The translations under genes and the position numbers were made by a program. Shown here one piece after another: positions 31,804-52,268 of a stretch of 64,000 bases of DNA (within the stretch, counting starts at the first letter, position 1; each line of letters begins with the position of its first letter). The notes beneath the pieces are model-generated. The model saw only the letters and a list, made by a program, of their open reading frames with translations, was not told where the DNA came from and did no database searches. Location: contig JAEDIC010000001.1 of assembly GCA_016292635.1 (NCBI GenBank), positions 67,275 to 131,274 of the forward strand. Reading direction: 5' to 3'. The DNA comes from Clostridia bacterium (GTDB taxonomy: Bacteria; Bacillota; Clostridia; Christensenellales; CAG-138).

Positions 31804-31814
31804 CAGAAACACAC

Positions 31815-31846
31815 AATGCCCCGTCCTGAAAATAACGGGGCATTTT
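31815..31846 (+). terminator. Intrinsic terminator.
   Basis: AATGCCCCGT-N10-ACGGGGCATT followed by TT. Confidence 0.7.
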
Positions 31847-32086
31847 CATGTCATAAAGCTGAAATGGTTACAGTTTGGCAACATTTTCAGCTTTAAATTC
31901 ATGTTAAAATGTGTATAACACAACATAATATTTGTTTTGCATTTTTCTCTTGTCATAAAAAACTACGATTTTTAAACATTCGCTGTCATATTTTACCCCT
32001 CTTTTCTCTCTCATTAGTGTGGAGTAATATCCATTTCTGCAAAAATAATTGGCAGTGCTTTCTTCTGCCAAAGAAAGTGTATCGGG

Positions 32087-32611: not shown

Positions 32612-32630
32612 TAAGAAAGGAGTCCGAAAA

Positions 32631-33482: not shown

Positions 33483-33501
33483 TCAGTAAAGGAGCAGCCC
33501 T

Positions 33502-33957: not shown

Positions 33958-34006
33958 GAAAAAACGCAAGCGCAGCCACAGAGATGACATATAAAAAGGA
34001 GGCCAT

Positions 34007-34435
34007 ATGTTTTACAGCCATATTTTTAAACTCAACATCGGAAAGGCAGCAAAATACCTGCTGCTGTTCATTGACAGCCTGGTTTTCGTCTCTTTAATAA
34101 TGTATGCAGCACATCTGACTATAACCCTGTTTTACAAGATGCCCCCCGTAGAGCCCATCTCTTTTGCAGCCAGATCTATTGCCTTCGCACTTGTATATAC
34201 AACAAGATTCGCCAAAGAGCCACCCGCAAAGTCAGAAAAGCCACGGTTTTCCCGTGTGCTTCCGGGTTGTTTGATCACGGGATTTATAGTAGGATTCGTA
34301 ATCAGCCTCAGCTCAAGAGCTGTAGCGCTGTTTACGGGCTATATTTCTATGATTGGCCTTTGCCTTACAAGCGCCTTGTTGATGATATGCGTTTACTATC
34401 TCTATCGGTTCATCAACAAAAGGAGCGCATCATGA
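34007..34435 (+). CDS. Multi-pass membrane protein, hypothetical.
   Basis: Four hydrophobic segments. ATGA stop/start overlap with the next gene. Confidence 0.5.
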   Translation: MFYSHIFKLNIGKAAKYLLLFIDSLVFVSLIMYAAHLTITLFYKMPPVEPISFAARSIAFALVYTTRFAKEPPAKSEKPRFSRVLPGCLITGFIVGFVISLSSRAVALFTGYISMIGLCLTSALLMICVYYLYRFINKRSAS

Positions 34436-35673: not shown

Positions 35674-36251
35674 TGGCTGATTCTGACTCCGTTACACTTA
35701 TGGAAAATATGGCGCAGGAGATACTTCCCGGACTGAAATACGATGGCATCAACACAGTTTCATTCCTGAATCACAACAATGACGCATACTGTCAAAGCGA
35801 TTATATTTGGAATGAAACCATAGGCGAATACATATTTACCTCTTTTACCATAACCAAAAGCGAAAAGTACCTTTCAAGGGATATGCGAACCTTCGCCTCA
35901 CACTTCCCTTTTTACGACTGGACTGATACTGCCTGTACAATACAAGAAATGACCGCTCAGGCTTCCGATGAGGGGAAATTCCTTGCAGCAGGTACGCTTG
36001 TTGACATCCGCCCCATAGGCAAAGATGTCTATTACAGCCTTGCCGCTAAGGGCCTTGTAGCAGGAACTGCTTATGAGGCCACTCTTGTAGACGAAACCGG
36101 AGAGGTTAAAGTGAGGATTTTGCCAAACATGCTGAACGAAGAGGAACTCAGCATGGAACTCCTTCACATGGTAAGCTGCCGCATAGAGGACGGTACCCCC
36201 GTATTTACCATTGAAAAAAGTGCCCTTCCTGAGGCACAGTTGCTTTTGTAG
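35523..36251 (+). CDS. Hypothetical protein, probably the continuation of 34432..35673 in the -1 frame.
   Basis: This frame reads protein-like from 35517 (YALLFRKQAVDGSDERDLSINLAIQPFAATEEQLQAF). An internal ATG at 35673 overlaps the upstream stop as TAATG. Confidence 0.45.
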   Translation: MLFRKQAVDGSDERDLSINLAIQPFAATEEQLQAFCETDVPAVYALSGKLMADSDSVTLMENMAQEILPGLKYDGINTVSFLNHNNDAYCQSDYIWNETIGEYIFTSFTITKSEKYLSRDMRTFASHFPFYDWTDTACTIQEMTAQASDEGKFLAAGTLVDIRPIGKDVYYSLAAKGLVAGTAYEATLVDETGEVKVRILPNMLNEEELSMELLHMVSCRIEDGTPVFTIEKSALPEAQLLL

Positions 36252-36280
36252 ATTCTTGACACGGAGGATAGGATCAAAGA

Positions 36281-37594
36281 GTGAAGACACGAGATGGAAT
36301 CAAAAAATCTTTCTTGTGGGTTTGTTTACTGCTTGTATTGATAGTGGGAATCAATCAAATCCACAAAAAGAATCTGGGGCGTGATATAGATGCCCTGAAT
36401 ATCGATGCTGTGCTTCCATCCGTGAGGTTGATTGCGGCAGGTGAGGCTACCCATGGCAACCGGGAGACTGCTTTGGTATGGAAGGAGCTGCTGATGCGGC
36501 TTGTGGAGGAACATGGTTGCCGGGCTTTTATACTGGAAACCTCCTTTGGAGACGCTGAGAAAATCAACCAATATCTCCTAAATGATTCGGGAACAGCTGA
36601 GGAATGTGTATTCCAGATAGATGCCGGTCCATACCGAACCGAAGAGATGGTGGATTTGCTCCAATGGATTCATGATTACAATCTGCTGGTGGAAGATCAC
36701 GAAAGGATTCGCTTTTATGGGATCGACATACAGCGTAATATAGACAGCAAAGAAGCGCTGCTCGCCTACATACAGCGCGCAGAACCAAAACACGTTTCGG
36801 CATATTATCCTATGCTGGGACAGAACAAGCCCCATGAAAGAGCAGATACGGAGTTATCTGCCGCCGATGTGACCACAGGGATGGAAAACAACAAGAGTCT
36901 TTATATAGAGCAAACTTCCGAACAGGAGTATATGCTGGCAAAGAGGCATGCTGATTGCATCCTAATGACAGAAGATTTGCTGCTTGCTGAAGGCGAAGCC
37001 CAATCCACCCTGCGTGATCGATACATGGCGGAAAATGTGCTATGGATATTGGAGCACGAAGCAGCCTATTATCAAAATTCTCACGCCCTGTTAGGCGCTC
37101 ATAACGGACACATTTTGCGGCAATCCAATTCCCCTCTGGCCTACGAAAAGCCTATGGGCCAATACTTAGGCGAGGCCCTTGGAAGTGATTATTACCCCAT
37201 TGGCCTGGAGACCAGGGAAAACACATTCTGGGCGTGGAAGCGGCGTATCCCCTGGGCATACCATGTTGAACGGAAAGGTTGGCTCATCGATTTGCTGGAC
37301 GACGCTTCCGGACAGGCAACTTTTGTGGATTTTTCCGATTACAATGATACTAACACCACCGCAATTCGAGGACAGGAATGGAATATAACAGGAATTGGCA
37401 GCGTCTACAGGCAGATTCAGAGCCTATATCCGGAATCCTCCGGCTTGCCGGTTCGCCTGGACGCGGCGTATTCCGCAATTCTCTTTTTACCTACAGCGAC
37501 TCCCTCGGCTTTGTTGGCCGGCAATAACATAACAATGGTTTTATTGGTTTCAGTGTTTGTTTTTCTATGCTGGCGAATTATGCGAAAAAAGTGA
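36281..37594 (+). CDS. Erythromycin-esterase-family protein with N- and C-terminal TM anchors.
   Basis: Motifs: AAGEATHGNRE, LGAHNGHI. Hydrophobic N-terminus (FLWVCLLLVLIVGI) and C-terminus (MVLLVSVFVFLCW). Confidence 0.75.
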   Translation: MKTRDGIKKSFLWVCLLLVLIVGINQIHKKNLGRDIDALNIDAVLPSVRLIAAGEATHGNRETALVWKELLMRLVEEHGCRAFILETSFGDAEKINQYLLNDSGTAEECVFQIDAGPYRTEEMVDLLQWIHDYNLLVEDHERIRFYGIDIQRNIDSKEALLAYIQRAEPKHVSAYYPMLGQNKPHERADTELSAADVTTGMENNKSLYIEQTSEQEYMLAKRHADCILMTEDLLLAEGEAQSTLRDRYMAENVLWILEHEAAYYQNSHALLGAHNGHILRQSNSPLAYEKPMGQYLGEALGSDYYPIGLETRENTFWAWKRRIPWAYHVERKGWLIDLLDDASGQATFVDFSDYNDTNTTAIRGQEWNITGIGSVYRQIQSLYPESSGLPVRLDAAYSAILFLPTATPSALLAGNNITMVLLVSVFVFLCWRIMRKK

Positions 37595-37731
37595 CGCTGT
37601 CCAATCAGTAGAAAACTACAAAGATAAACCAGAAGCCGAGAAAACAGCATCTACAATTAAGGGCGTATTTGCAAATGCGATATATCAATCGCTTGTCTCA
37701 GATAAAAGATATGTAATAGGGAGGTAAAACT

Positions 37732-37899
37732 ATGGAAGGCGGTCTTCTGTTAATAGTCTCATCAATAATTAATATTGTTTTGAAGATAGCACTGTTTGTG
37801 GCACTATTCTGCTTGATTATTTATCTTTTGAGAATAGCGCGATGGTTTATTGAACGACACGATGTACCGCCCCTGTTCAATATTAGGCGGAATAAATAA
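37732..37899 (+). CDS. Tiny membrane protein (55 aa). Not in the ORF track.
   Basis: GGAGG 6 nt before ATG 37732. MEGGLLLIVSSIINIVLKIALFVALFCLIIYLLRIARWFIERH. AT-rich context. Confidence 0.45.
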   Translation: MEGGLLLIVSSIINIVLKIALFVALFCLIIYLLRIARWFIERHDVPPLFNIRRNK

Positions 37900-38011
37900 T
37901 TTAGTAAAAGTGAATTTTATTATCCTTTTAATGGTTTCTGAAACAGCGGTTACGCTATAGTCTGTAATATTGTTATACAAAAATATTCTGTATAGATGGA
38001 GCATTACGTAT

Positions 38012-38155
38012 ATGGCTCATTCCTTTAAGATGATTCAAATAATATTCAATTATTTAATTCTGATTTCAACATATACATTATATGTTTTAGCTATTATCGC
38101 ATTAATCCTATTTATTAAATGCATGTTGCGATATTTAAAAACAAATAACCAGTAA
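38012..38155 (+). CDS. Tiny membrane protein (47 aa).
   Basis: GGAG 10 nt before ATG 38012. One TM, then CMLRYLKTNNQ. Confidence 0.4.
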   Translation: MAHSFKMIQIIFNYLILISTYTLYVLAIIALILFIKCMLRYLKTNNQ

Positions 38156-38243
38156 TCGGTAAGCTGCACAAGTTCTACGTTTCTAGCAGATATAAACATT
38201 AGGTGTTTTGACTAGGTGCAAGAGGATAAACTTTAAGGCAAAA

Positions 38244-38335
38244 GCCGGACGCAGGGCGGTGAGCCGCTTCCTTCCTCGTTTTGAAAGTGGGAGAGAAACG
38301 GGCCTTGAGGGGCAGATAATGGCAATTGTGTTTAA
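38244..38335 (+). pseudogene. Internal fragment homologous to the BlaR1-like gene (30061..30155).
   Basis: GRRAVSRFLPRFESGRETGLEGQIMAIVFN compared with GRRAVGHFMPRFEKGYETGLEGQIMAAVLN. The nucleotide alignment is visible by eye. Confidence 0.6.
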
Positions 38336-38373
38336 TTGCTGCAACAAAATATAAAAATTTGGAGGTTTAGTGT

Positions 38374-38574
38374 ATGCAAGGAGATTTGATTAGAATACTA
38401 TTGTACAGCATTGCGATCTTCATGCTTGGCCTCATTGCAATCAACCTTGCTGAGGAATACTTTATCAAATATATGCTTTTTTCAATAATAATGAGCGGGA
38501 CAACGATTATTACATGTATAGGGTGCTTGCGTAGATTGAAAAGTGATAATATCCGTGATAAAAACAGTGATTAG
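38374..38574 (+). CDS. Small two-TM membrane protein (66 aa).
   Basis: GGAGG RBS. Two hydrophobic segments, then CLRRLKSDNIRD, which resembles the tail of the 38012 ORF. Confidence 0.5.
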   Translation: MQGDLIRILLYSIAIFMLGLIAINLAEEYFIKYMLFSIIMSGTTIITCIGCLRRLKSDNIRDKNSD

Positions 38575-38639
38575 TATATTTGATTTATATTTTTATTGCC
38601 ATGGGATAGCTGGAGAAATGGCTCAATCCCAAATTCTGT

Positions 38640-39211
38640 GTAAACACCAAAATGGCGTAAAATAGAGCAACTATTTATTGGGTGGGAATGCCGGGAAACG
38701 GCATTCCCGCCTTGTGTGCATTCTATCCGGAGCCTGGCGGCATGTCAAGGACAGCCGTAAGGCTGTGCACTTTATCCTTGACAGGATGGCAGGGGCCGGT
38801 TATCCGGGAATCCTGTCTGCAAAGAATATCTCCGGCTGGGAATGGACCGCGCCCCAGTCCTGCCGTCGTCCCGTCCACTTTTTCGTGATGCCAATCATGG
38901 CCAGATGCAGCATTAAGCAGGCTGTCATCCTCTGTCCCATATCTGCTTTTATTTTTCCATATATTTCTTGCCTTCTGTACTTTAGTGCAAATACTATATG
39001 ATATTTGCATCTCCATTTACTGTGTGATAAGCTTTTGATGTCATCTTGCATGACTTAGACCTCCTTTGTTTTGATGTGGTTGGCGGACCTTCATCATTCT
39101 ATCATTGGGGGTCTACTGCTTGAAGCTTTTTATTCCACCAGCATAGCTGGTGGTTGTTTTTCGCTGAAGCTACAAACACTATGTGCACAACATCACTGTT
39201 GTGCACATAGA
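38640..39211 (-). mobile_element. IS200/IS605-family element remnant. Boundaries are approximate.
   Basis: A degraded tnpA flanked by a 10-bp-stem hairpin (38684-38708) and a 9-bp-stem hairpin (39183-39206). There are no terminal inverted repeats, as expected for this family. Confidence 0.5.
38800..39051 (-). pseudogene. tnpA: IS200-type Y1 transposase (tnpA), internally deleted or degraded.
   Basis: The N-terminus SLSHSKWRCKYHIVFALKYRRQEIYGKIKAD is the IS200 TnpA signature. The HUH (xDHxHxL) segment is missing. The ORF ends early at 83 aa, and C-terminal similarity continues past an in-frame TAA. Confidence 0.65.
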
Positions 39212-39328
39212 TGGCGGAGAAGGAGGGATTCGCGCGCCAGTCACCCCAGCCTACTCCCTTAGCAGGGGAGATAAGGGTGGCTGTTTCTCTGGGCAAAATA
39301 AGGCTGTGTATGTAGTACGTATGTAATA
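39183..39328 (-). repeat. Repeat unit A: hairpin, tRNA-Ser 3' fragment, and an arm with two 9-mers.
   Basis: Shares with 45385..45710 the hairpin GTGCACAAC-N6-GTTGTGCAC, the tRNA-derived block, and GTATGTAGT-N2-GTATGTA(A/G)T. Confidence 0.75.
39212..39270 (-). pseudogene. tRNA-Ser(GCU) 3' fragment, decayed.
   Basis: The reverse complement reads CTCCC-CTGCTAA-GGGAG..(variable arm)..GAATCCCTCCTTCTCCGCCA. Relative to the copy at 45587, 6 nt (AACCCT on the plus strand) of the T-arm are deleted. There is no acceptor 5' strand (GGAGAAG) upstream. Confidence 0.7.
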
Positions 39329-39499
39329 GATATCTTTGAAATTTCTACATAGCACATCTTTATGTGCGACTTCATAAATGCAGGCTTGCAAATTATTATA
39401 ATATTCCCTTTATTTCTTATCATCACTCCATCAGTAAAACTCTATTTTATTTCACATCCATCTAAATAACACTATATCATCTTCCTCGTTTTTACCACC

Positions 39500-39533
39500 T
39501 GAGCAATTTTTTGCCGTAAACCAATGCTATACT
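39500..39533 (+). promoter_or_regulatory. Conserved bipartite promoter-like module, copy 1.
   Basis: TGAGCAATTTTTTG-N11-TGCTATACT (extended -10, TGnTATACT), about 50 nt upstream of the PcfJ-like gene. Same spacing as 41787..41820. Confidence 0.45.
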
Positions 39534-39583
39534 GATATTCCGCTTAAAACAGCCGTATTAAAATCTTACCGGAGGACTGATTT

Positions 39584-41200
39584 GTGAGTGATTGCTTTGC
39601 TTTTGAGATAACCGTTTCCGACGGCTTCATCCTGCAGGAAGAATGTCTTAATATGCCTTTGGATGCAGCTGCTCGCCTGCTTAAAACAAAGCGCAGGCGC
39701 AGATACACCTCTGCTCTTAGGGACAATGATACCGCAATGCTTACACGTCACTTTTTCATCTGTCCTCATTGCCGCCGCAGGACTCCTGCTTATCCTCGCT
39801 TTATTATGTTCCGGAAAGACATTCCTTCTGCAGTTACCCGATGCACAGTAACAACTTGGGCGGATCCTCAGCTGTCGGTTTTTGAAAAAGAAAACACCGT
39901 GCTGTGTCTCAATAAGCCTCTGACAGACCAACATTTTTTCTCCTGCCCTCATTGCGGCATTAGCTCATACCCCGCCTCAGAGTCACACCACATAAACATA
40001 AGCAATCGCAGGGACTGTATCACGCTTTCACATACCACCTTCAGCCTGGATACGCTATATGCCATGCTCCCCGATGAGGATTGCGGTTTATCCTTTCTTC
40101 TCCCTGTCACAGAAAGCGCAGTATTCGATTTTTTCTTAGGAAAGGTATTTCTGCGTATCACAGATAACCGCGGCACTCAGCTTTGCAGCCGGGATATCAC
40201 CTCCATTCCCAGCATATGGGGCCGCAGTACACTGTATCGCCTTCTCTGCAATAACTCCCTTGTGCAACGCAGGCTGCGCCGGCTTTTCGCCTGCCATATG
40301 TCCTTCCCCTTTTTGAATTGCGAGCTTACCGCCCTCCACTTTGTTGCAGCCACTCGCTTTCAGGGCTTTTCCCGCAGCTTTTATGATTCCATACCTTATA
40401 CTGTTAAAACAGGGCATCTTGACGAATCTTTTGATTCCGTATCCGCAGCTTTGAAATGCGCAGCAGATATCCCTTCCCTTTATAAAAAATCCAGACTGCC
40501 TCAGATGAAGTCCATTAAGAAATGCTTTTTTGCCAATACCGGCTTTTTCTTCTATCTTTCGGAAGCTGTATTCCTTTGGAATACCATTAAAGACCCCAAT
40601 CTCTTTCGTACTCTGTTGGTGTCGCCCGGAATATATCGGCTTTTTGCCTTTCTGCACCAGTTCCCGGGAACAACGGTTTTCTTCGGTGATTATGCTGAAA
40701 GACATGGTAAAAAGTCCCTGACTGACCTTCTTGTGAACCTCTCGGATACTGTTAAGCAATTTGCAATACAGTATTCCGCTATGAATACTGCTGCCCGAAA
40801 CCATGAACCCTTTCTCTTTGAAAGGCATGATAATATACCTGGATATGTTCTCCCCCTCGCCTACTCGGTTCCGGTACATTCACCTGCCAGGCGATTTATA
40901 CATAATACCTCCATCGACGGCTACTGCTTTGACTGCCTCAGAAGCACAAGGGATTATACCTTCGCAGGTCAAGCACTGAACAACTGTCTGAACGCCTCTT
41001 ATCCCCAGGACAATACAGTAATATGCATAAAAAGGAATTCTGAAATTATAGCAGCCATAGAAGTTAACGGAGATACCGTGCTGCAGGCACGGACCCACGG
41101 CAATGCAGACATAGATAAAAGCCCTGCTATTTACAAAGCTTTTAAAAAATGGATGCGGCACAATTCCCTCCGTATCAGCCTTGAATCGGCCGATGCATAA
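39584..41200 (+). CDS. PcfJ-like protein (conjugative-plasmid-type).
   Basis: GTG start 8 nt after GGAGG. C-terminal block GQALNNCLNASYP..ICIKRNSEIIAAIEVNGDTVLQARTHGN resembles the PcfJ-like domain. CxxC pairs lie near the N-terminus. Confidence 0.5.
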   Translation: MSDCFAFEITVSDGFILQEECLNMPLDAAARLLKTKRRRRYTSALRDNDTAMLTRHFFICPHCRRRTPAYPRFIMFRKDIPSAVTRCTVTTWADPQLSVFEKENTVLCLNKPLTDQHFFSCPHCGISSYPASESHHINISNRRDCITLSHTTFSLDTLYAMLPDEDCGLSFLLPVTESAVFDFFLGKVFLRITDNRGTQLCSRDITSIPSIWGRSTLYRLLCNNSLVQRRLRRLFACHMSFPFLNCELTALHFVAATRFQGFSRSFYDSIPYTVKTGHLDESFDSVSAALKCAADIPSLYKKSRLPQMKSIKKCFFANTGFFFYLSEAVFLWNTIKDPNLFRTLLVSPGIYRLFAFLHQFPGTTVFFGDYAERHGKKSLTDLLVNLSDTVKQFAIQYSAMNTAARNHEPFLFERHDNIPGYVLPLAYSVPVHSPARRFIHNTSIDGYCFDCLRSTRDYTFAGQALNNCLNASYPQDNTVICIKRNSEIIAAIEVNGDTVLQARTHGNADIDKSPAIYKAFKKWMRHNSLRISLESADA

Positions 41201-41274
41201 AACAATTTTTCCGTATGTGCGCCATCCGTATTTATTGATCTCAACGGTATGATTATACCTCAGCCAAAATTTAA

Positions 41275-41301
41275 ACTCCCCCTCGTTAATCGAGGGGGAG
41301 T
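41275..41301. terminator. Bidirectional terminator between convergent genes.
   Basis: ACTCCCCCTCG-TTAAT-CGAGGGGGAGT, an 11-bp stem. The stop codon of the minus-strand ORF lies in the loop. Confidence 0.55.
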
Positions 41302-41741
41302 ATGGTTGACAGGGGGCCGCCGGAGCTTTCCGTGCGCGCCCCTATTTTCCAGTTGTTTTTGTTGAAGGGGCTGCCGTAACCGCTGCAGGTATAATCCCGA
41401 GTCTCGTTATATGGATAGAGATAATCCCTAAAATACCCTCCCACAGTATGCAGGCAGTATTTCGCCTCGTCCTCGGGCCTGAGCGGTTCGTTCAGATACA
41501 CCCGATACACACAGATGTCCTCATCCGGAACAAACCGGTCAGGCAGAGGCTTTACCAGGCATTCCATGAGGTGCTCCCTGCAGTTTTCATCCACCCGATA
41601 TTCCCTCCGAAGCTCACGGCATTCCACCATTGTCTTGCCCTTAAGGCGCACCACCTGGCAGAAAGTATAGGCAGAATACAGCTCGAATGAACTGCTTTTT
41701 ACGAATATATCCCCCACCTGAACATTGTGATTTCTCTCCAT
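41286..41741 (-). CDS. Hypothetical protein.
   Basis: 151 aa with an AAGGAGGG RBS. No family recognised. Confidence 0.55.
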   Translation of the reverse strand: MERNHNVQVGDIFVKSSSFELYSAYTFCQVVRLKGKTMVECRELRREYRVDENCREHLMECLVKPLPDRFVPDEDICVYRVYLNEPLRPEDEAKYCLHTVGGYFRDYLYPYNETRDYTCSGYGSPFNKNNWKIGARTESSGGPLSTILPLD

Positions 41742-41786
41742 AGCACACCCTCCTTTATTTCTGTAATATAGTTATAGCATTATAGG

Positions 41787-41820
41787 TGAGCAATTTTTTG
41801 ACCCCCGCAGTTGCTATGCT
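41787..41820 (+). promoter_or_regulatory. Conserved bipartite promoter-like module, copy 2.
   Basis: TGAGCAATTTTTTG-N11-TGCTATGCT upstream of the WYL gene. It is followed by TTGCCA-18-TATGAT (41822-41851), whose spacer holds CAGGC-N5-GCCTG. Confidence 0.45.
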
Positions 41821-41884
41821 ATTGCCATGGCAGGCGTAATGCCTGTATGATAATATTGATCATATCGGAAAGGATTCTCATAGC

Positions 41885-42892
41885 ATGTCTAATTCCGCTC
41901 CCATCAAGGATAAAGAAGAAAAGAAAATACTGCCCTTTCGCATACTGCAGATACTCAAAGAACACTCGGATGAAAATCACCCCTTGACCTCTTCACAGAT
42001 AATCTCCCGGTTGGATCGCGACTATGGACTCAAGGCCACCCGCAATACCATCCGCAGCAACCTTCATGTGCTCATGGATGCAGGTTATGAAATCAGCACC
42101 TTTGAGGACAACGGCAAAGGCATATATATTGAGGAGGGTGAGCTGCTCCACGAGCAGCTCCGCTGGCTGATTGACAGCGTGCTGAACTGCCGTTATCTTC
42201 CGGAAAACAGGGCGCAGGAACTTATCACCACCCTCAAAAAAATGGGTGGACCTGGCTTCTGCAGCAGCATGGATTACGCCGATGCGTTAAAGCAATGGCC
42301 CCGCCACACTAATCAGGAGTTTTCTTTAAGCCTTGAACTGTTGGAAGAAGCCATTGAAGAAGGCCGCCGTGTCACCTTTAACTACAATCGCATGGACTGC
42401 GACGGCGAGCTCCATCAGTTAGGAAACACCCACCTTGTGCTGCCCATCTGCATATTCCCGGTGAATTATCAGTATTACATGGTAGGATATGACTTTGGAG
42501 CAAATATGCTGCTCCACTACCGTCTGGACAGAATAACCGGGACGAATGTTGCAGAAACGGCCATAGACGATGACAAAAAGCTGAAGCCCCGGGATTTCAA
42601 CGCCGTCCAGTATGCCCGCCAGCACCCTCATATGTACGGCGGAGTGCCCGAACCCATCACCATGAAGATGCCCCGCCGCCTTGCCGGCGCCGTAATGGAC
42701 ACCTTTGGCCCCGCCGCACTCATGCGCCCGCTGGATGAGGAATACATGCAGGTGCGTGTAACAGCAGCGCCTGAGGGCATGCGCTTTTTCGCTCTGCAAT
42801 ACGGTCCAAGCTGCGAGGTGCTGAGCCCCCAAAGCTTGCGTGATATAATTAAACAGGATATAATGGGAATGGTAGAAAAATATTCTGATTAA
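41885..42892 (+). CDS. WYL-domain transcriptional regulator (HTH-WYL-WCX architecture).
   Basis: N-terminal wHTH (FRILQILKEHSDENHPLTSSQI). WYL core VTFNYNR..YYMVGYDFGANMLLHYRLDRITG. Confidence 0.85.
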   Translation: MSNSAPIKDKEEKKILPFRILQILKEHSDENHPLTSSQIISRLDRDYGLKATRNTIRSNLHVLMDAGYEISTFEDNGKGIYIEEGELLHEQLRWLIDSVLNCRYLPENRAQELITTLKKMGGPGFCSSMDYADALKQWPRHTNQEFSLSLELLEEAIEEGRRVTFNYNRMDCDGELHQLGNTHLVLPICIFPVNYQYYMVGYDFGANMLLHYRLDRITGTNVAETAIDDDKKLKPRDFNAVQYARQHPHMYGGVPEPITMKMPRRLAGAVMDTFGPAALMRPLDEEYMQVRVTAAPEGMRFFALQYGPSCEVLSPQSLRDIIKQDIMGMVEKYSD

Positions 42893-42934
42893 GGCGCCAT
42901 AAAACACATCTTTAAAACAAAAGGAGAATTTCAA

Positions 42935-43774
42935 ATGGCAGGTTTTGAGCGTTCGCTTTCGGATGGTCTTATTGCAAAACTTCAAAACGAAAAGATTTTT
43001 ACAGATAAGCTGCTACCAGATATACGTAATGGGAAAGTATTTCCCGCTGTCAGAAATGAAGAAATATCATTTTATTATAAAGGCGGAAGGCTGTTTGCTT
43101 ATGATAAAAACGGGTTTAAAACTCATATAAAATACTGTATAATTCCCGAGTTCCACGACAATTACATTACAGAAACAGAATTAAATAATATCACCATTTC
43201 AACATCATTCTATAATGAGTATGAAGAAATAAAAAAAATATGCGAATTATATAGTGGAGGCGAAGCCAATGCAGTATCTGCCTTATACGAGAACGCCTGT
43301 CTTTCCGATAGCCGAGTTATTTTTCTTGATACAGAGATAGCATTATACACCAATTCAGAAAACGACCGTATCGACTTATTGCTCTATGACATAATTTCCC
43401 GAAAATTGTGCTTCTGTGAAGCAAAGCTTTTTTCCAATCCGGAAATATGGGCTCTTAAATACAAAAAACCGAAAGTATGCAGCCAAATCGACAAGTATGA
43501 TAAAAAAATAAACACTTATTACGATGATATAGTAGCACAATATTCCAATTATATAGGCATCTTAAACAAACTGTTTAGCACAGACCTCCCCGTTCCCACT
43601 TCTCTTCATAAAAAAACAGGATTGCTGATAACCGGCTTTGATAGTTCCCAAAAAGAAAAAATCAAAAACCTTCTTATTGATGATGGTAGTTTAGATGGGA
43701 TTTCCAATTATCGCACCGGCGAACTGAAAAGCAAGCAAATTTCTACACTGTTTAAAAATATTACCAAGGCTTAA
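42935..43774 (+). CDS. Hypothetical protein with a PD-(D/E)XK-like nuclease motif.
   Basis: VIFLDTEIAL..DRIDLLLYDIISRKLCFCEAKLF fits a D..(E)xK core. Visibly AT-rich and Lys/Asn/Ile-rich, unlike its neighbours. Confidence 0.5.
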   Translation: MAGFERSLSDGLIAKLQNEKIFTDKLLPDIRNGKVFPAVRNEEISFYYKGGRLFAYDKNGFKTHIKYCIIPEFHDNYITETELNNITISTSFYNEYEEIKKICELYSGGEANAVSALYENACLSDSRVIFLDTEIALYTNSENDRIDLLLYDIISRKLCFCEAKLFSNPEIWALKYKKPKVCSQIDKYDKKINTYYDDIVAQYSNYIGILNKLFSTDLPVPTSLHKKTGLLITGFDSSQKEKIKNLLIDDGSLDGISNYRTGELKSKQISTLFKNITKA

Positions 43775-43853
43775 ATTACCCACACCATGCCCGACCACAA
43801 ACTTGCGCACCATTCATCTTATACTTATATCACAACAACACAGGAGGTAAATC

Positions 43854-45101
43854 ATGAAGGTTGAAATACTCAGAGGCAAAGAACACATCGGCGGAAATAT
43901 CATAAAGGTGACGGAAGGCGAAACCGCCATACTGCTGGACTGCGGCGCAATGCTGCCCGTCATTGGCGAAGCAAAAGTTGAAGACGTTTTCGACATGGGT
44001 CGAATTGGCAAGGTGGATGCACTTTTCCTCTCCCACCATCATGGGGATCACTCCGGCCTTATGGAAAAGCTGTCTCCTGAGGTGGACCTTTATACCACCG
44101 TCGAGACCGTAACCTTTATGGATAAGCTGGATATGTACATGAACAGACCGCTGCGTACACGTGGAAGGGCGGTTCACAGCCTGTTTGACGGCGAGAGCGT
44201 GACCGTAGGTTCCCTTACAGTCACCCTCTATATTACCGAGCATTCTGCCGAAGGCTCCGCCATGTTCCGTGTGGAGGGCGGCGGCAAAACCCTTCTTTAT
44301 ACCGGAGACTTCAAGCACAGCCTCAACATTCCCCGCGGTGTTGACCTGCTTATTACTGAAGGCACTATGCTCACCAGAGACGGTCAGGCCTATGCCGATG
44401 AGGACGGCGTGGAGATGGCCTTCCGCAGGGTCTTCAGAGAAACCGAGGGCAGGGTATTTGTCCTCACCTCCAGCGCAAACCTGCCCAGAATACGCTCGGT
44501 AATATCCGCAAGAAATCACGACTGTCCGGATGAAATCCGCTATACCAATTATTCATATTCCTCCGGTGATGCTCCCCGCCCCATAATGCAGGATGTATTC
44601 CTCAAGTACATTCTGGAAAACACGGGCCACAAGGAACTTGCCGCACCATATGCATTTATCTGGAACCAGTTCAGCGACAGCCGCAACAAAGCGTATGACC
44701 GCATAGCAAAGCACTACTGCGATACCAATGCCGCTGCAAGCTGCCGCCGCATAAATGACCTTTCCAGAGCAGTGGTATTTATTCGCCCCACCATGGTAGA
44801 TATGCTTGAAAAGCTGATAAACGAGGGCATGGATCTATGTGATGACACACTGGTCTTCTCCATGTGGCGCGGCTATGAGAAGGATCCTAATGTGGCAAGG
44901 CTGCTGACGCTCTTTGACAAGTTTGGTGTACATCCCACATATATCCACACCAGCGGACATGCCGATGCGGCACATATACAAGAATTGATAAACAATGTAA
45001 ACCCCAGAAGGATTGCCTGCATCCACAGCGAAAACTCCGCCATGATAGAAGAAATTGCAGGAGAGATACCCGTAGAAAAGGCCGACGTAATCGAGCTGTA
45101 G
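43854..45101 (+). CDS. MBL-fold metallo-hydrolase of the beta-CASP (RNase J/CPSF-like) type.
   Basis: Motifs: SHHHGDHSG (HxHxDH), TEHS, YTGDF, LITEGT, HTSGHA, CIHSE. Confidence 0.8.
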   Translation: MKVEILRGKEHIGGNIIKVTEGETAILLDCGAMLPVIGEAKVEDVFDMGRIGKVDALFLSHHHGDHSGLMEKLSPEVDLYTTVETVTFMDKLDMYMNRPLRTRGRAVHSLFDGESVTVGSLTVTLYITEHSAEGSAMFRVEGGGKTLLYTGDFKHSLNIPRGVDLLITEGTMLTRDGQAYADEDGVEMAFRRVFRETEGRVFVLTSSANLPRIRSVISARNHDCPDEIRYTNYSYSSGDAPRPIMQDVFLKYILENTGHKELAAPYAFIWNQFSDSRNKAYDRIAKHYCDTNAAASCRRINDLSRAVVFIRPTMVDMLEKLINEGMDLCDDTLVFSMWRGYEKDPNVARLLTLFDKFGVHPTYIHTSGHADAAHIQELINNVNPRRIACIHSENSAMIEEIAGEIPVEKADVIEL

Positions 45102-45133
45102 CGGATTTATATTCGATCCTTAACGGACAAGCC

Positions 45134-45165
45134 AAAGGTCATGCGTAAACAGCATGACCTTTCTT
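45134..45165 (+). terminator. Intrinsic terminator.
   Basis: AAAGGTCATGC-GTAAACA-GCATGACCTTT followed by CTT. Confidence 0.65.
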
Positions 45166-45384
45166 CATTGCAGTTCTTTCTTTATTTTCGGCAGAGAATT
45201 TATTGCCATATTCCTCTGCCCCTGCATGCATTGTCTGCCCAGCCCCCTCTGAATATATGACAATGCTGAACAGAGCCGACGCCTAAAAGAAAACATCTGT
45301 AATGCTGCGGATATCCCATATTGAAACCCGCTAATACAAAATTCATTGAACGTGAAATCCTTCGGTCTTTTCCCAAAACACCAA

Positions 45385-45433
45385 GTGCACAACATTTCTG
45401 TTGTGCACGTAGATGGCGGAGAAGGAGGGATTC
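45385..45433 (-). repeat. Repeat unit B, proximal part: hairpin plus a 20-nt copy of the tRNA-Ser 3' terminus.
   Basis: GTGCACAAC-ATTTCT-GTTGTGCAC, then GTAGA, then TGGCGGAGAAGGAGGGATTC. The same 20-mer recurs at 45587-45606. Confidence 0.75.
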
Positions 45434-45541
45434 CCCCCGGCACTGGGGCAGTGCCGACGCCAGCCCGGGGCGCTGAAAAACCATTCACTGGATGGTTTTT
45501 ACCCGCCACAGGCGGGCCGTTCCCTTCTTATCCCTCCTTCT
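45420..45541. other. A 122-nt multi-hairpin element closed by a 12-bp long-range stem.
   Basis: AGAAGGAGGGAT (45420-45431) pairs with ATCCCTCCTTCT (45530-45541). Internal hairpins lie at 45439-45455, 45476-45500 and 45502-45516. Confidence 0.4.
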
Positions 45542-45554
45542 TTTATGCAGCGCG

Positions 45555-45584
45555 AAAAAGAGACCGCAAATGCGATCTCTTTTT
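45555..45584 (-). terminator. Hairpin directly downstream of the tRNA-Ser fragment.
   Basis: AAAAAGAGA-N12-TCTCTTTTT, with an inner CGC/GCG pairing. It lies 2 nt from the CCA end. Confidence 0.5.
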
Positions 45585-45586
45585 CG

Positions 45587-45651
45587 TGGCGGAGAAGGAG
45601 GGATTCGAACCCTCGCGCCAGTCACCCCAGCCTACTCCCTTAGCAGGGGAG
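45587..45651 (-). pseudogene. tRNA-Ser(GCU) 3' fragment, running from the anticodon stem-loop through CCA.
   Basis: The reverse complement reads CTCCC-CTGCTAA-GGGAG, a long variable arm, GAGGG-TTCGAAT-CCCTC, then CTTCTCC-G-CCA. Upstream sequence lacks a D-arm and the GGAGAAG acceptor strand. Confidence 0.75.
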
Positions 45652-45769
45652 GTAAGGGTGGCTAAATGTCTAGAGAAAATGGGGCTGTGTATGTAGTGGG
45701 TATGTAGTAGGGTTCGCCTTTTTGTCGGGAATCATCATTCCAGCATTTGAGCATGACGCCGAAAGATCA

Positions 45770-46213
45770 TCAGACATCAGTATCGTCATCCCAGTCAGGA
45801 TCATCCCATGTAGGATCGTCCCAGACATCATCCTCTTCGTCTAAATCCTCGTCCTCGTCAAAGTCATCTAACTCATCAGAATCAATATCGTCATCGCCGT
45901 CAAACTCCAGAGAAGCAAAGGTAATTCCGGAGGACTCGGTATAGCCGCCGCCTATATTGCCTTTTGAGTCGACGAATACGGTATTGCCAAACAGCCCCTC
46001 TGTGGAGGAACCGATCGCATTTCCATCACGGTCGAAATGCCCCGTTATCCCGAAAAGGCCCTTACAACTGCCGCCTGCGTAATTGCCTTTAGCGTCCACG
46101 TACACATCATTTCCCCATATGTCTTTCGTACTTCCGCCTACCACACTGCCCTTACCGTCAACAAAGGTTTTGCTTCCGAATAGTCCGGGTATGCCAAATA
46201 TATCCTTTTTCAT
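45770..46213 (-). CDS. Repeat protein with an extremely acidic Asp/Trp tail.
   Basis: Four repeats of about 22 aa (LFGxxxFVDxKGNxxGGS), then about 50 residues of almost only D/E (DDVWDDPTWDDPDWDDDTDV). Confidence 0.6.
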   Translation of the reverse strand: MKKDIFGIPGLFGSKTFVDGKGSVVGGSTKDIWGNDVYVDAKGNYAGGSCKGLFGITGHFDRDGNAIGSSTEGLFGNTVFVDSKGNIGGGYTESSGITFASLEFDGDDDIDSDELDDFDEDEDLDEEDDVWDDPTWDDPDWDDDTDV

Positions 46214-46240
46214 GAATAGTTCCTCCCAGAATTATCGTGG

Positions 46241-47047
46241 TTAATTATGTTCGTACCAGTAATCTTCTGCCTCTTCGTAATCGAAGAAATCATTGTAATA
46301 GTCGTAGTAGAAATCATCTGCGTTGGAATATGCTCCGGCGTCGTATGGGTCGGAATTGCATGAACAGGATGGGGAGCTGAAGTTTTTATGATTTACGTTC
46401 TTCCAAGTGTCGCCGGACCAATGGATATCGTTGCGCTTATCTGTTTCCACTACCTTGCCTTTATATACTTCCAGCCAGAATATCATACATCCGTCTGCAG
46501 CGTCCCATGTATATACATCAAGATCATCTGTAGAAAATGACAGTTTCCCCTTGCCCAGCTTTGTATCGTGTATGTATTCGGGATCCATACCTACATATGG
46601 AAGCCCAGCCTTGATCTCTGCCCGCTGCCGCCGGATTTCTTCATCTGCGGCGGCTTTTACCTGCTTGGCATACCGGCAAATCTCATCATAGCAGGGAAGG
46701 TAGTCTCCGTATTCCACAACTTCTTCAAGTTTGTCGTATGCATAAACGGCTTCTTTGCCAGTCGGGTTTTCTCCGTATTTTGCCCGTGTGTTTGCGTAAC
46801 TCAACAGCCAGATACTGTCATGATCATCGGATGAAACGGCATCCAGAACATCCGCAGCCCTCTCATAATTGCCTTCGGCTATCAGTTGAATGGACTTGTT
46901 GTAGGCTATTGTCGGCGCCGCAAAGCTTATAAAGCAAACTATTCCAATAGCAACGATAACATAGATACCTATTACGTATTGTTTACGCTTTATGATTAAA
47001 TATAGGGCCAGCACAAATGCGGCAATTATGTATATCAGAATTTCCAT
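46241..47047 (-). CDS. Two-TM membrane-anchored hypothetical protein.
   Basis: Hydrophobic N-terminus (ILIYIIAAFVLALYLI, IGIYVIVAIGIVCFISF), a soluble body, and a Tyr/Asp-rich tail. Confidence 0.6.
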   Translation of the reverse strand: MEILIYIIAAFVLALYLIIKRKQYVIGIYVIVAIGIVCFISFAAPTIAYNKSIQLIAEGNYERAADVLDAVSSDDHDSIWLLSYANTRAKYGENPTGKEAVYAYDKLEEVVEYGDYLPCYDEICRYAKQVKAAADEEIRRQRAEIKAGLPYVGMDPEYIHDTKLGKGKLSFSTDDLDVYTWDAADGCMIFWLEVYKGKVVETDKRNDIHWSGDTWKNVNHKNFSSPSCSCNSDPYDAGAYSNADDFYYDYYNDFFDYEEAEDYWYEHN

Positions 47048-47187
47048 AGATATGTTAACCTCGTATGATGAACAGTTTAAGCAATTTGCATCTTATCACT
47101 ATTATAATGCAAATTCCATTCAGTATCTACCCAAAGATAGACCCCGTATAATTCGAGCAGCCGCTTATCGCAACCGGCATATCCGGC

Positions 47188-47370
47188 TTATGCTGCCGGA
47201 TATGCTTTGGCCTTATACTCACGGATCGGATAGGCATTTGATGCAGATGCTGTCTGAGTGCGTCTTGGTTCTGAGTATCCGACCATTTCCCTCCAGCTCA
47301 AGCTCCACATGTTATCCAAACGCTCTTCCATGATTTCCCTGTTGTCTTCTTCGTACTTTGCCCAACCCAT
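47188..47370 (-). CDS. Small hypothetical protein (60 aa).
   Basis: AAAGGAGG RBS (ttaaaaggaggttccATG). No family recognised. Confidence 0.45.
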   Translation of the reverse strand: MGWAKYEEDNREIMEERLDNMWSLSWREMVGYSEPRRTQTASASNAYPIREYKAKAYPAA

Positions 47371-47402
47371 AATGGAACCTCCTTTTAATTTATTATTAGG
47401 TA

Positions 47403-47900
47403 TTATGCTGCGTAAATAAGCTGCGCCGCTTTTTCAAAGTCGCAGTTAAGCCTTATCATCGAGATTACATCTCCAACACAGGCAGATAATTTCTTTTCGA
47501 TGGACGGAATATGATATTCGTTGGTGATAGTGACATATTTAAGCTGCCAGCCGCCGGAAGGGCACTTGTCCGCCTGTAAAACCCTCATTCCTTCATATCC
47601 GGCAAGAGCCTCTGTGACGATGTTTAATATGCTTTGTGATATTTGAGCTGCTTTCAGAGGGCGCTTTTCATTCTTTGGCTTTGGAAGATAGTAATAACAC
47701 CCTTTGCCGATACAGTCGTGCTCTGTTCGAAGTTTTTCGGTGAGGAATCCGGGGTGCTCCTTGTATTGGCAGTACCCTACACAGTTTCCGCAGCCGGTTA
47801 TCTTGCCGTCTATGCAGCGCCTGTGATGTGCTGAGCTATTTTGCTGTTCGTAAAATGTGTACGTGTGATTGGTTTCAAAGTAAGCATTGTTGTTTATCAT
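47403..47900 (-). CDS. Cysteine-rich protein. The N-terminal domain may be Cys-rich-VLP-like, as seen on Firmicute mobile elements.
   Basis: CIDGKITGCGNCVGYCQYKEHPGFLT..HDCIGKGCYYYLP holds six Cys in 40 residues. Confidence 0.55.
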   Translation of the reverse strand: MINNNAYFETNHTYTFYEQQNSSAHHRRCIDGKITGCGNCVGYCQYKEHPGFLTEKLRTEHDCIGKGCYYYLPKPKNEKRPLKAAQISQSILNIVTEALAGYEGMRVLQADKCPSGGWQLKYVTITNEYHIPSIEKKLSACVGDVISMIRLNCDFEKAAQLIYAA

Positions 47901-48094
47901 TGCAGGTGCGCTTCCTTTATATTGTTTTGTAGGGGTTCGTGTATATAGTAATGAGAAAGCGAAAAAGTAAGGTCGTTTTATGAAATATATAATATATTTT
48001 CATCGGCTCCGGTTTACTCTCGTTTTTATATACAGGATGTGATTACCCGCCACTTTGAAAAGTGTATTGTCTGTATTTTTCGTTGGAATATAGT

Positions 48095-48124
48095 AAAGTT
48101 CGCCGCAAAACTGCGGCGAACTTT
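48095..48124. other. A 12-bp perfect hairpin in a divergent intergenic region.
   Basis: AAAGTTCGCCGC-AAAACT-GCGGCGAACTTT flanked by AT-rich sequence. It lies between two divergently transcribed genes, so it is not an ordinary 3' terminator. Confidence 0.4.
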
Positions 48125-48307
48125 ATATTGAAACTAAACGAAATAGATTACATACTTACCTAAATATATTGGCGCAGAACAGCTGCCCTCCCTGCCAAAC
48201 ATCATGCCCGATATTCGCCCTATACACCCTTGATGTAAAATGATATACTAAAATTATATATGTAAAGATAAAATTCTATCGAAAATAAAAGCATTTTGGG
48301 GTCTCAT

Positions 48308-51300
48308 ATGCGAGTAAATATTCTGGATTTTGCTGAAAACTATGCCATAAAGCAAATATTTGAGCTTTGTAAATTTAAGCCTGCAACGAATCCCAAGGAT
48401 GATTTGGCAATATCACAATTGGCAGATTATATTGAAAGCCTCAGCCCCTATGTCGAACGTGATGCGGCTCAGATTTCGCTGCTTCAAAGTATCATGATTT
48501 CCATGGACGATAATGGCATGGCAGACTCATACAGAGTAAAGGCATTGCATTCAGCCGTTATGCATTGGGGCATGGGCTCCGCTGCGGATAAAATCACATC
48601 TACTCAGGAATACTCAGCGCTCTATGAAAAGGGATTTATCTATGAAGTGCTGCGTCTCGGGAAGCAGCGATGCCTTAAATTCCAGCATCCGTATTCGGAT
48701 GCTCTCAAGAGCGGCGCGTTGGCAGGTATTAAAGAACTGCTTGCAAAAAATGATATTGTAAAATCAAACAACAAAAATGTATCTGAAGGCATATCAAAAT
48801 CTCATCTTTACAATAAAACCGAGCCTACAGAAAACTCTGCCATGCAGATGCTTTTCAGGAGAATCAACCGCGAATTTCCCGATGCTGCTTACATTGGCGA
48901 TATAAAAATCAACGATGAAGAATACGCCATTCTGAAGCAGTATTTGAAAAAAGCATTGGAAAATCTTGATGGCAATCCTGACGATGCCATGTATGCTGTG
49001 GCTGTGGTACAGGTTGCCATGCGTACATATCGTGAACATGTTTTTTGGGGAAATTTCTTTGCCGAAGCAGATGTTCCGTCAAATGCCTCCCTGCAGGGAA
49101 TTATAGGCAAAAAGTTCTGGGCTATTCTCATAAAGCATAACAAGTTTCATACAGACAGCAAACGCTATATACAGAACATTCTGATGCATTGCTATGTTTC
49201 TGATTATTACGCACCCAAGTATTTTGACTTTTTATACAAGTTTTACAGCATAGACCTGGACAGAGATATATCGAGGCTTGATCAGGAAACGATGAACATC
49301 CTGCTTGACTCGGTATGCTCTGAAGATAATACCGGGCGCCGATATATGCTGGTACAGCATACAAGCCAGGCAGTAGCAGCAAACAGACCCGATGCAGCAG
49401 TTCGTATACGTCGCCACCTTGAGCAAATCGATAAGCTGTTCTGGAACCCGGAATATGAAATCATAGCGGACCACCGGCTGGATTCCCTTATGCAAGATTG
49501 GGCAAGGTCAGCCAACGAGCTGGCGCTGGATGCAAACAGCATTGGAAGAAATCACGGGCGCGGTGCACGAAGGTTCTCTTCCCCTTATATTTTCTTCGAC
49601 AAAGCAAATGCTTCTTTCCAGCTGGTATTGCCGTCCCAGATAGTAAAATGGGGTGGAGAAAGCGACCTGTACTGGGAGATTTCCGGCGCAGAGGAAATCT
49701 GTCTGGAAACTGAACTCACAGAGTCGGTAACGGGCTACAAAGTACTGCAGACAAGCACTCCCATAAATTGGCATTCTGTGCTTGGCAAATTCAGGATCAG
49801 ATTGACTGATAACGGCGGAATCGCTCACAAGACTTTTTACATAACAGAAAGCAACATCAGATTTTTCGATTGCGATGGATATCCCGTAAATGCCAATGCG
49901 CTTAAGACAGAGGAAATCATTGCAGTATCTCAACCCGAAGACATATTGCTGTCCAGCGCTCTTACTGACAGTTATGTGGCGAATGGGCTGCTATTCTCCT
50001 GCTTTGATTTTGAATATGAGGACATATTGCGTCTGCCTGACGGCAAAGCGGTAATAGTGGGTAAAAAAGAAATTCAAAGCGGCCTTGCCGGCAAAGGCTA
50101 TGTGGAAGCGGCTGTATGCACCTATGATGACAACGAGTGCAGGCTATATCGGGAAATGCCCCATCTGGTTCTCAGAATGCAGCCTCAAAAGGCCGCAGGA
50201 ACATGCATAGAAATAAATGGGCAGCGGTTTAAGCTGTTTGATACCGAAACCGTAGAGTTTTCCATAGATGACCGTTCAGGAGAGACAGGATATTACATAA
50301 ATCTGGCATTCTTAGGTGCTCAGAATGGATTATACGAAATAATGGCCGATATCCCCGGGGGTGCTGTACATCGCTGGAAATTTGTGCTGGTCAAAGATTT
50401 TGAGGCTGTATTCGACGGTGCTCCATATGTATTTGAGCCCCGTGGAACAGTAAGCTTTAATGACAGCATGCAGGTAATACCGCTCAGTGCCGCAGCAGAA
50501 CAAGTGCCGGGAACCAATGATTTCAAGTTTGAAATAGAGCGCACCGGCCGCCGGATAGAGTTTGAACTTGCTGCATTGGATAAGCCATGCATTGTGTCGC
50601 TTCCGGTGCCTGCTGTGTTTATAAAGGCAGGGAATGACAATTGGTCAAGCCGCCGTCCGCCCCATATGTGGCACAAAGATTTCCCGGATATTATTGAACT
50701 GTCCGTACCCTATCACAAGGTTTCGCTCAGTATGGAACATCCATCTTCAGATGATGGCGGAAGAAGAATTGAATACGGAAGAAACATGGGCAGCGACAGC
50801 ATTGTTTGCGATGTTCGTCGTTTCAAGTCGTACTTATCCGGCGACGGAAACTTAAGGCAGCTGCGTATGAGCTTTGCAGAAGTAGATACCGATTTGTTTA
50901 ATATACTGATCAGAAGTATAGTTACTTCCTGTGATATAATAGGCAACTTCGAAAATGATTCTATCACTATAAACGCAAATATTATCGGCCAGGCACAGTA
51001 TTGCTTTGATCTGTATCATAACGGAGCGTTGATAGCGGATAAGGCAATGCTTGATAATGGAACTGCAACACTATTCGGCCTGGCAAAGAATGGACGATAT
51101 ACAGTAGAATTATTTGAAGAGGAAGCAGATACCTCCGGCTTTGAAGACGCTTATTATTCCTCCCTCGGCAAATATGAACAGCAGCTGCTCAATCCTTATG
51201 ATATGAGCGACAGGTCCTTCCGCATCATCCAGATAGAGAATAAAGAAAATGGCACTATATATCCGTTGATGTGCAACTTCTACGTGGAGCACCTGAAAAA

Positions 51301-52258: not shown

Positions 52259-52268
52259 GAGACATACA

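Follow-up and report, generated by a model that had tools for sequence, protein, structure and literature searches.

The window analysed here is a 64,000-nucleotide stretch of DNA (C28:67275-131274, where C28 is a 196-kb contig of the source genome, designated G000). It holds two tandem islands, A and B, each of which begins with a displaced 3' fragment of a tRNA-Ser(GCU) gene. The prefixes G, C and L are our designations for genomes, contigs and loci; unless otherwise stated, coordinates are those of the window and junction features lie on the minus strand. The fragment at island A (39212-39270, 59 nt, CTCCCCTGCTAAGGGAG...CCA) runs from the anticodon stem through CCA with AGGGTT missing from its T-arm, and that at island B (45587-45651, 65 nt) is identical to the gene. 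Each forms the core of a putative attR-type junction. A third copy, at 45414-45433, exactly reproduces the last 20 nt of the tRNA 3' end. The D-arm and the 5' acceptor strand are absent from all three copies (those starting at 39212, 45414 and 45587), and ARAGORN made zero tRNA calls in the window. An initial annotation made from the letters alone had described the two fragments and a 20-nt copy near 45.4 kb, and the sequence reads as it described. It also had the first fragment losing 6 nt of its T-arm; the nucleotides are indeed missing, but not through a local loss. The short form recurs at about seven sites in other genomes (it is found in G001, G003, G008, L077 and L055) and is an inherited variant rather than a product of local decay.

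Adjoining each fragment is a P-arm module (39271-39337 for island A and 45652-45720 for island B) composed of a conserved 40-nt spacer, two arm-type repeats and ∼10 nt beyond them. The repeats lie at 39308-39316 and 39319-39327 in island A and at 45689-45697 and 45700-45708 in island B, with 11-nt phasing at both loci. Positions and phasing are those given in the initial annotation, but one copy departs from its motif: GTATGTAGT is found at 39308, 45689 and 45700, and GTATGTAAT, with one mismatch, at 39319. The consensus GTATGTART, which summarizes repeats of the form GTATGTA(G/A)T, gave 5 matches versus 0.48 expected, and 5 matches were reached in none of 100 shuffles.

A hairpin, H, follows the tRNA-derived sequence at both loci. 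Copy 1 (39183-39206, minus strand; with its flanks TCTAT-GTGCACAAC-N6-GTTGTGCAC-ATAG) starts 5 nt after the CCA of the 59-nt fragment and copy 2 (45385-45408, minus strand) starts 5 nt after the 20-nt copy, in agreement with the spacing reported earlier. Two copies are present in the window versus 0.03 expected, and copy 3 lies 3' of the CCA of the intact tRNA-Ser(GCU). Read in the tRNA sense, hairpin H has an intrinsic-terminator-like score with 14 pairs, and every core is followed either by it or by an alternative terminator, T. Hairpin H thus scores as an intrinsic-terminator-like site after CCA and not as a recombination arm. This score led us to set aside a lox/dif-like 14-6-14 crossover site. 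It likewise counts against H being the end of an IS200/IS605 insertion sequence (IS), as do the facts that the neighboring IS ends 7 nt before H and that two copies of H have no adjoining IS.

Terminator T (CGAAAAAGAGATCGCATTTGCGGTCTCTTTTTCG) and a structured unit occupy 45414-45586 on the minus strand. The unit, 153 nt long and closed by a 12-bp stem, is predicted to adopt a multi-helix fold (-87.8 kcal/mol, z = -5.7) and ends in the last 20 nt of tRNA-Ser with CCA. In most genomes of the genus it stands immediately behind the intact tRNA; this is so in G002, G004, G008, the conspecific strain (L054) and G007, where it is duplicated in tandem. It is a native neighbor of tRNA-Ser(GCU) across the genus, with the 20-nt copy belonging to the unit, and in G000 it marks what stood behind the tRNA when island B arrived. 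An Rfam search with the 153-nt unit and the fragments returned no meaningful family match. It could represent a miniature insertion or the gene of a tRNA-like small RNA.

The intact tRNA-Ser(GCU) that had been expected past 64 kb was located by running ARAGORN on the whole assembly. It lies at C28 c[137259-137351] on the minus strand (window-equivalent 69985-70077), 6 kb past the window, oriented like the fragments and forming a tandem with tRNA-Ser(UGA). An M23 peptidase, an AMP-binding enzyme and SelA are encoded upstream of the tRNAs. Island A, with cargo at 39338-45384, is ∼6.1 kb long. Island B is ∼24.3 kb; its cargo extends from 45721 to 64000 and on to about 69955 (window-equivalent), after which come copy 3 of hairpin H and the intact tRNA.

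Counterparts of the arm repeats were found beside integrase genes of phages that use the same tRNA. The records concerned are L083 (ENA ERZ27268072 k141_136282), G061 (IMG/VR UViG_3300028887_000316) and Aster (Faecalibacterium phage PP479941). In L083 the 3' end of the integrase gene P0010 (PF00589, 36.9 bits) overlaps GTTACACAC-CC-CACTACATAC, the attP core is identical to the G000 tRNA-Ser(GCU) at 61 of 61 positions, and the CCA is followed by a terminator and then by a second repeat pair, CTATTACATAC-GC-GTTACATAC. In the 32-kb G061, ATTACACAC occurs twice directly after the gene for a 376-aa integrase that is 57% identical to that of L083; the core begins at CCCCTGCTAAGGGAG, and a pair of related repeats follows the CCA. 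The island repeats (CTACTACAYACCCACTACATAC) thus compare with GTTACACACCCCACTACATAC at the 3' end of the L083 integrase gene, and the same motif occurs in G061, G015 and G112. G015, a member of the same family, carries a complete 34-kb prophage with the tRNA at one end and the integrase gene, repeats and core at the other, so that, as in G061, paired arm repeats lie between the integrase gene and the core. In G112 a repeat pair follows the CCA of the intact tRNA beside a convergent integrase gene. Aster has an Arm-DNA-bind_4 integrase whose gene lies upstream of an attP starting in the same anticodon stem; no paired arm repeats were noted there. Because the island repeats are homologous to phage attP arm repeats beside integrase genes (those of L083, G061 and the G015 prophage), they are most readily read as arm-type integrase sites and the tRNA fragments as attR-type junctions. 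Both assignments had been proposed in the initial annotation, as had the division into tandem inserted islands, and the comparison supports them.

The phages also indicate where an integrase gene should stand. The initial annotation placed it next to the intact tRNA. In the L083 and G061 attP and the G015 prophage, the gene is on the arm-repeat side, so that after integration it adjoins the displaced fragment; in the islands unrelated cargo stands there. When the genome was searched in six frames, PF00589 and PF00239 gave six and two matches in G000 and zero on C28, which leaves no tyrosine or serine recombinase beside the intact tRNA or elsewhere on that contig. No recombinase was found in Pfam and PHROGs scans of the sizeable open reading frames (ORFs) between 39.2 and 70 kb. 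Nor was an integrase remnant detected upstream of the arms: at almost all sites the frame crossing the repeats closes within 5-20 codons, and phage integrases used as tblastn queries matched only the translation of the core. Islands A and B hold neither conjugation genes nor a replication/helicase-primase module of the kind found in Tycheposons. With no cognate integrase in G000, islands A and B would currently be fixed.

Other recombinases of these genomes were considered as partners. At the end of contig C25 (44872-46056) is a 531-aa integrase-like frame containing a single in-frame TAG, and a phased pair of CTGGTACGAA occurs within the next 150 nt. It is the closest G000 homologue of the L083 integrase (25% identity) and was rejected as the missing partner because CTGGTACGAA, present twice, constitutes its own, different arm repeats. 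The weakly matching integrases of G001, G002 and G008:C46 were also rejected, as none has the module; those of G002 and G008 adjoin tRNA-Arg(CCU). Separately, two integrase-family matches with identical scores, in 430-aa frames, lie 37 kb apart on C32 (24646-25221 and 61368-61943), one adjoining tRNA-Pro(CGG); a duplicated or tandem element may have its two ends there. Large serine recombinase genes were seen a few kb past the CCA side of tRNA-Ser cores, pointing to the core, in two unrelated records: L073 (3453-4985; G008:C19 beyond its last core and hairpin) and L042 (6895-9766; the IMG/VR provirus G062). These may represent a second kind of element using the region behind tRNA-Ser.

The arm and core were searched in 60 relatives; further arm-bearing copies were found only in G001, G003 and G008, which are of the same genus, often several in a row. 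A scan of GTDB genomes with the arm and core pattern yielded sites from three genomes of the genus only, all of them without an integrase, and one of JGI metagenomes returned a single camel-gut contig, also integrase-less; in IMG/VR the same pattern gave 0 matches. An arm-only scan of IMG/VR gave a single match, in the metagenome-assembled genome (MAG) of a giant virus, which was dismissed as chance. In total 19 modules were aligned, from four same-genus genomes, three further assemblies and one camel metagenome (the three assemblies came from context look-ups, as did the conspecific strain). Conservation sets in ∼10 nt ahead of the repeats and continues into the core; farther upstream the copies have nothing in common. 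The module reads CTACTACAYAC-N1-2-ACTACATAC (with CC between in the alignment), a 40-nt spacer containing ..CCCCATTTTC..AGACA..TAGCCACCCTT.., and the core. An integrase gene adjoins none of the 19 modules, and PF00589 gave no match on the module-bearing contigs of G001, G003 and G008. Cargo is unrelated between copies (defence, ABC transporters, methyltransferases), and the arm-adjoining genes are metabolic or transport genes (M19 peptidase, amidohydrolase, cysteine desulfurase, ABC transporter). Judged from these alignments, islands A and B appear to belong to a genus-wide family of integrase-less cassettes that share only the junction module and stand in variable order behind the tRNA.

A first alternative is a purely residual origin, in which each island is the dead scar of an independent integrase-bearing phage, integrative and conjugative element (ICE) or integrative and mobilizable element (IME) whose integrase and transfer genes were deleted and which has been immobile since. 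Such is the usual origin proposed for cis-mobilizable elements (CIMEs; PMC5704250), and it agrees with the lack of any integrase on C28 and of a cognate one in G000, with the absence of P' arm sites at the proximal ends, and with an IS200 remnant beside island A that reflects ongoing local decay. Independent deletions should, however, end at various points, and in all 19 modules similarity ceases ∼10 nt upstream of the repeats, with no integrase fragment retained; the cargo, moreover, is not phage- or ICE-like. A cassette that is 99.4% identical in two species and occurs in at least five contexts without an integrase (cassette Y, described next) also speaks against immobility, and we regard this origin as quite unlikely. 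The endpoint shared by all 19 modules upstream of the repeats suggests instead one ancestral integrase-less module that later swapped cargo, and not repeated independent loss of the integrase gene.

Cassette Y (5.07 kb) encodes a rhodanese-PBP protein, two permeases, an ABC ATPase and a 155-aa protein. It was traced by an identical permease to at least five different neighborhoods (L017 679-6157; L015 15751 to L016 1242; L074, L075 and L077), in each case with tRNA-Ser cores as its bounds. The copies of G001 and G008, which are different species, are 99.36% identical over 5492 nt. By comparison, the M23 peptidase that adjoins the tRNA shares only 70-75% identity when G000 is set against three other species of the genus. 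On the right side, the sequence peculiar to Y stops immediately behind ...CTGCCAAGGGAGTAGGCTGGGGTGA in four of five contexts, including G001 and contig C19 of G008. On the left side in L074, L075 and L077, the neighbor supplies its own arm and core up to GGGGTGA, beyond which comes a Y-specific degenerate remainder (TTGATGTGAAAGGTCGAATCGCTCCTTAACAGTCA, terminator T and a truncated 153-nt unit). In L074 and L077 both ends of Y thus fall right after GGGGTGA. Within AAGGGAGTAGGCTGGGGTGA, which lies 3' of the anticodon, a T/C difference marks the cassette side. Because the same boundary is found on both sides of Y, the comparison points to site-specific exchange within AAGGGAGTAGGCTGGGGTGA.

The same junctions bear on a second explanation, that homologous recombination is the main mover: the modules (∼150 nt of arm and core, and T with the 153-nt unit) would serve as portable homology for RecA-dependent swaps after DNA uptake, and no integrase would take part in the spread. 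Several boundaries look like this. In L075 a junction of Y switches within the conserved spacer, upstream of the core; in G001 and G008 the identical block has its left boundary within the 153-nt unit; and whether the T-arm is long or short depends on the host genome rather than on the cassette. Against it, the left boundary of Y in L074, L075 and L077 falls at the same core position as the right boundary in four of five contexts. The arm repeats also keep exact 11-nt phasing over 82-91% diverged copies, which suggests selection for protein binding, and the origin of the modules would be left unexplained. As an account of the main mode of spread, homologous recombination is therefore unlikely.

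That the repeats are not recombination sites at all is very improbable. They would then be functional tRNA-like RNA elements, such as 3' processing or stabilizing signals of upstream operons, or local duplications of the tRNA region. Most upstream genes do point toward the fragment, and the neighboring 153-nt unit folds strongly and in a tRNA-like manner. The upstream genes of cassette Y, however, point away from its fragment. The fragments themselves lack the 5' acceptor strand and D-arm and many copies lack half of the T-arm, no Rfam family matches, and the repeats upstream match attP arm sites of real integrases.

The locus also differs between strains. In the conspecific assembly GCA_051883915.1 (JBJEUQ010000007.1; L054/L055), which has an identical M23 peptidase, the flanks in L055 are 99.2% identical up to window position 27030 and 99.7% identical from the tRNA CCA onward. 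Between these points lie 11.4 kb versus 43 kb in G000. The comparison with relatives that the initial annotation proposed therefore does give a site polymorphism, a different and much shorter array. Its tandem islands from 39.2 kb stand, but the variable region, as set by the limits of flank identity, is larger and extends from 27030 to 69985. The 11.4-kb insert is a corrinoid methyltransferase island (a B12-dependent MTTB cluster), and a second arm pair without a core lies further in (L055 12285-12306). Left-flank synteny did not provide an empty site in other species of the genus, where the left flank is not syntenic.

Taken together, we consider it probable that the half-copies are attR-type junctions of a tyrosine-integrase family that targets the anticodon-loop region of tRNA-Ser(GCU), and that they bound integrase-less, CIME-like cassettes whose helper we infer. 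Each junction would consist of ∼10 nt of conserved sequence, the two arm-type repeats, the 40-nt spacer, and the tRNA from anticodon stem to CCA followed by a terminator. The integrase of an L083/G061-type temperate phage would both insert and move the cassettes. The most plausible route is cis-mobilization, in which a helper prophage would first integrate at the tRNA, supplying the integrase and an attL with P' sites. It could then excise using the attR of a distal cassette, taking the downstream cassette along, and after reintegrating elsewhere it might leave by its own attR so that the cassette remains.

Several observations weigh against this interpretation. There is no cognate integrase in G000, in the genus representatives or beside any of the 19 modules. 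The P-arm spacers of the phages are 51-62 nt versus 40 nt in the islands, and spacer sequence differs too, so the helper is proposed from family resemblance only. A P'-type repeat pair, which L083 and G061 have 80-110 nt after CCA, is absent at the tRNA-proximal ends of the cassettes, and a lone cassette would consequently not rebuild a full attP. Some junctions around Y (the right one in L075, the left ones in G001 and G008, and the distribution of long and short T-arm forms) lie off a single crossover point, which indicates that homologous recombination or gene conversion also acts. Lastly, a module of arm, short core and hairpin H in the conspecific strain (L055 1957-2134) has an orientation inverted with respect to the tRNA, the joint being the palindromic terminator.

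The closest known concept is that of CIMEs and of site-specific accretion beside ICEs and IMEs of streptococci (PMC5704250). CIMEs likewise lie between att sites at the 3' end of a target gene, carry no genes for integration or transfer, and stack in tandem, and their movement is proposed only with or by an integrase-encoding element. In islands A and B, core copies flank the cargo and recombinase and conjugation genes are absent. They differ from CIMEs in showing no trace of a decayed ICE or IME, in having an att module that matches phage attP and not ICE att, and in that a single conserved P-arm module, always truncated at one point, accompanies many unrelated cargos. They reside in an uncultured genus of pig and ruminant gut Clostridia, and their mobilization is presumptive. 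The tRNA-Ser(GCU) phages L083, G061 and Aster share with the islands an attP core from anticodon stem to CCA, and L083 and G061 share paired TACAYAC-type repeats on the 5' side, 50-60 nt from the core. In the phages, however, the integrase gene lies immediately upstream of the repeats, and L083 and G061 have a second repeat pair after CCA; the islands lack both.

In Prochlorococcus, Tycheposons (bioRxiv 10.1101/2020.12.28.424599) were recognized through a tyrosine recombinase of their own and have their integration and replication modules in common. There too, cargo elements pile up by tRNA genes, partial tRNAs mark integrations and newcomers push older elements inward. The cassettes described here have neither a recombinase nor such modules, and come from another phylum and habitat. 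A parallel case is provided by the ssrA-targeted genomic islands of Dehalococcoides (PMC3146451), which are tandem islands at the 3' end of a small-RNA gene with direct repeats between them, some units lacking a recombinase. Both the recombinase family and the target are different in those islands, and the long P-arm module with arm repeats has no counterpart. Composite staphylococcal cassette chromosome (SCC) islands that lack ccr similarly form tandem islands at the 3' end of a housekeeping gene, with direct repeats between them and some units without their own recombinase; they too use another recombinase family and target and have no counterpart of the long P-arm module. Integron cassettes resemble those studied here in forming a promiscuous cargo array at one locus, in variable order, with a recombination site in each unit and the recombinase outside the units. 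Here, however, there is no intI/attI at the head and there are no attC hairpins; the units are multi-gene, 5-25 kb long, and carry a lambda-type arm and core. What sets the present case apart from the known ones is an att module like phage attP, a single P-arm module on many cargos and no decayed mobility genes.

A broader formulation, which we offer tentatively and hold to be doubtful as a whole, is that of an integron-like but lambda-type array. Recombinase-less multi-gene units of 5-25 kb, each with an inherited P-arm and core, might be passed between species via the hijacked integrase of temperate phages that use the same tRNA, and would then be distinct from satellites, ICE-derived CIMEs and integrons. 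If a phage integrase truly moves the cassettes, this would be a simple and general route for exchanging defence and metabolic operons among uncultured gut Clostridia, in which cargo bears no mobility-gene cost. The combination of arm repeats, 40-nt spacer and half tRNA-Ser also provides a searchable signature for metagenomes. In annotation it sets the borders of two islands in the window, one carrying Druantia-like and LRR-MoxR genes and the other a WYL regulator and nucleases.

The latter, island A, contains genes for a 538-aa Zn-ribbon protein with a weak PcfJ-like end (39584-41200, plus strand), a 151-aa protein (41286-41741, minus strand), a WYL/WCX regulator (41885-42892, plus strand), a 279-aa protein (42935-43774, plus strand) and an MBL/beta-CASP hydrolase (43854-45101, plus strand). 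The cargo of island B comprises defence genes (Druantia-like) together with LRR (leucine-rich repeat) and MoxR genes. According to Pfam, its products are proteins of 147, 268 and 165 aa with no assigned function, a 1320-aa protein and a DEAD/MZB helicase, an LRR_5 protein, a DUF2201 vWA-like protein, a MoxR-type AAA ATPase, a DUF4132-LRR protein and a 1290-aa LRR protein. Among the matches listed, island A was recovered from at least three samples as ∼6-kb contigs starting inside the core; eight contigs fall in the 5-10 kb class. Contigs holding the arm-end genes of island B likewise stop in the module. In six contigs from other samples, again among the matches listed, the match to island A stops by 45216, and at least two of these (L066 and L067) continue past that point with a different sequence of ∼30 nt (TCGATAAGGTACAATAAATTGCGC...). 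The stop and the differing continuation imply that strains differ in where the cargo ends on its tRNA-proximal side, and that this border does not coincide with a core.

Contigs of many MAGs of the family end no more than ∼50-115 nt from the 3' end of tRNA-Ser(GCU): G006:C47, G010:C9, G018:C14, G022:C23, G023:C32, G033:C97 and G051:C69. The 3' site of this tRNA in the family therefore suggests itself as a widespread, assembly-breaking hot spot of variation, and cassettes of the kind described would explain why MAG assemblies of the family tend to be interrupted just behind tRNA-Ser(GCU).

The distal part of the variable tRNA-Ser region, 27030-38649, is a strain-variable segment without a recognizable att scar. 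It contains BlaI/BlaR1-like, ECF sigma factor and erythromycin esterase genes and small membrane ORFs, and has neither an arm repeat nor hairpin H. Between this segment and hairpin H, outside the att structure, a degraded IS200/IS605 copy occupies 38650-39175 on the minus strand, with a remnant of the Y1_Tnp N-terminus at 38929-39018. Over 242 nt it is 94.6% identical to an intact copy at C26:45417-45773. The intact IS ends at GAAGCTACAA, and in C28 that end lies 7 nt before H. Four pig-gut assemblies from other samples end exactly at the IS border, 38648/38649, and the IS copy starting at 38650 explains why other assemblies stop at 38649.

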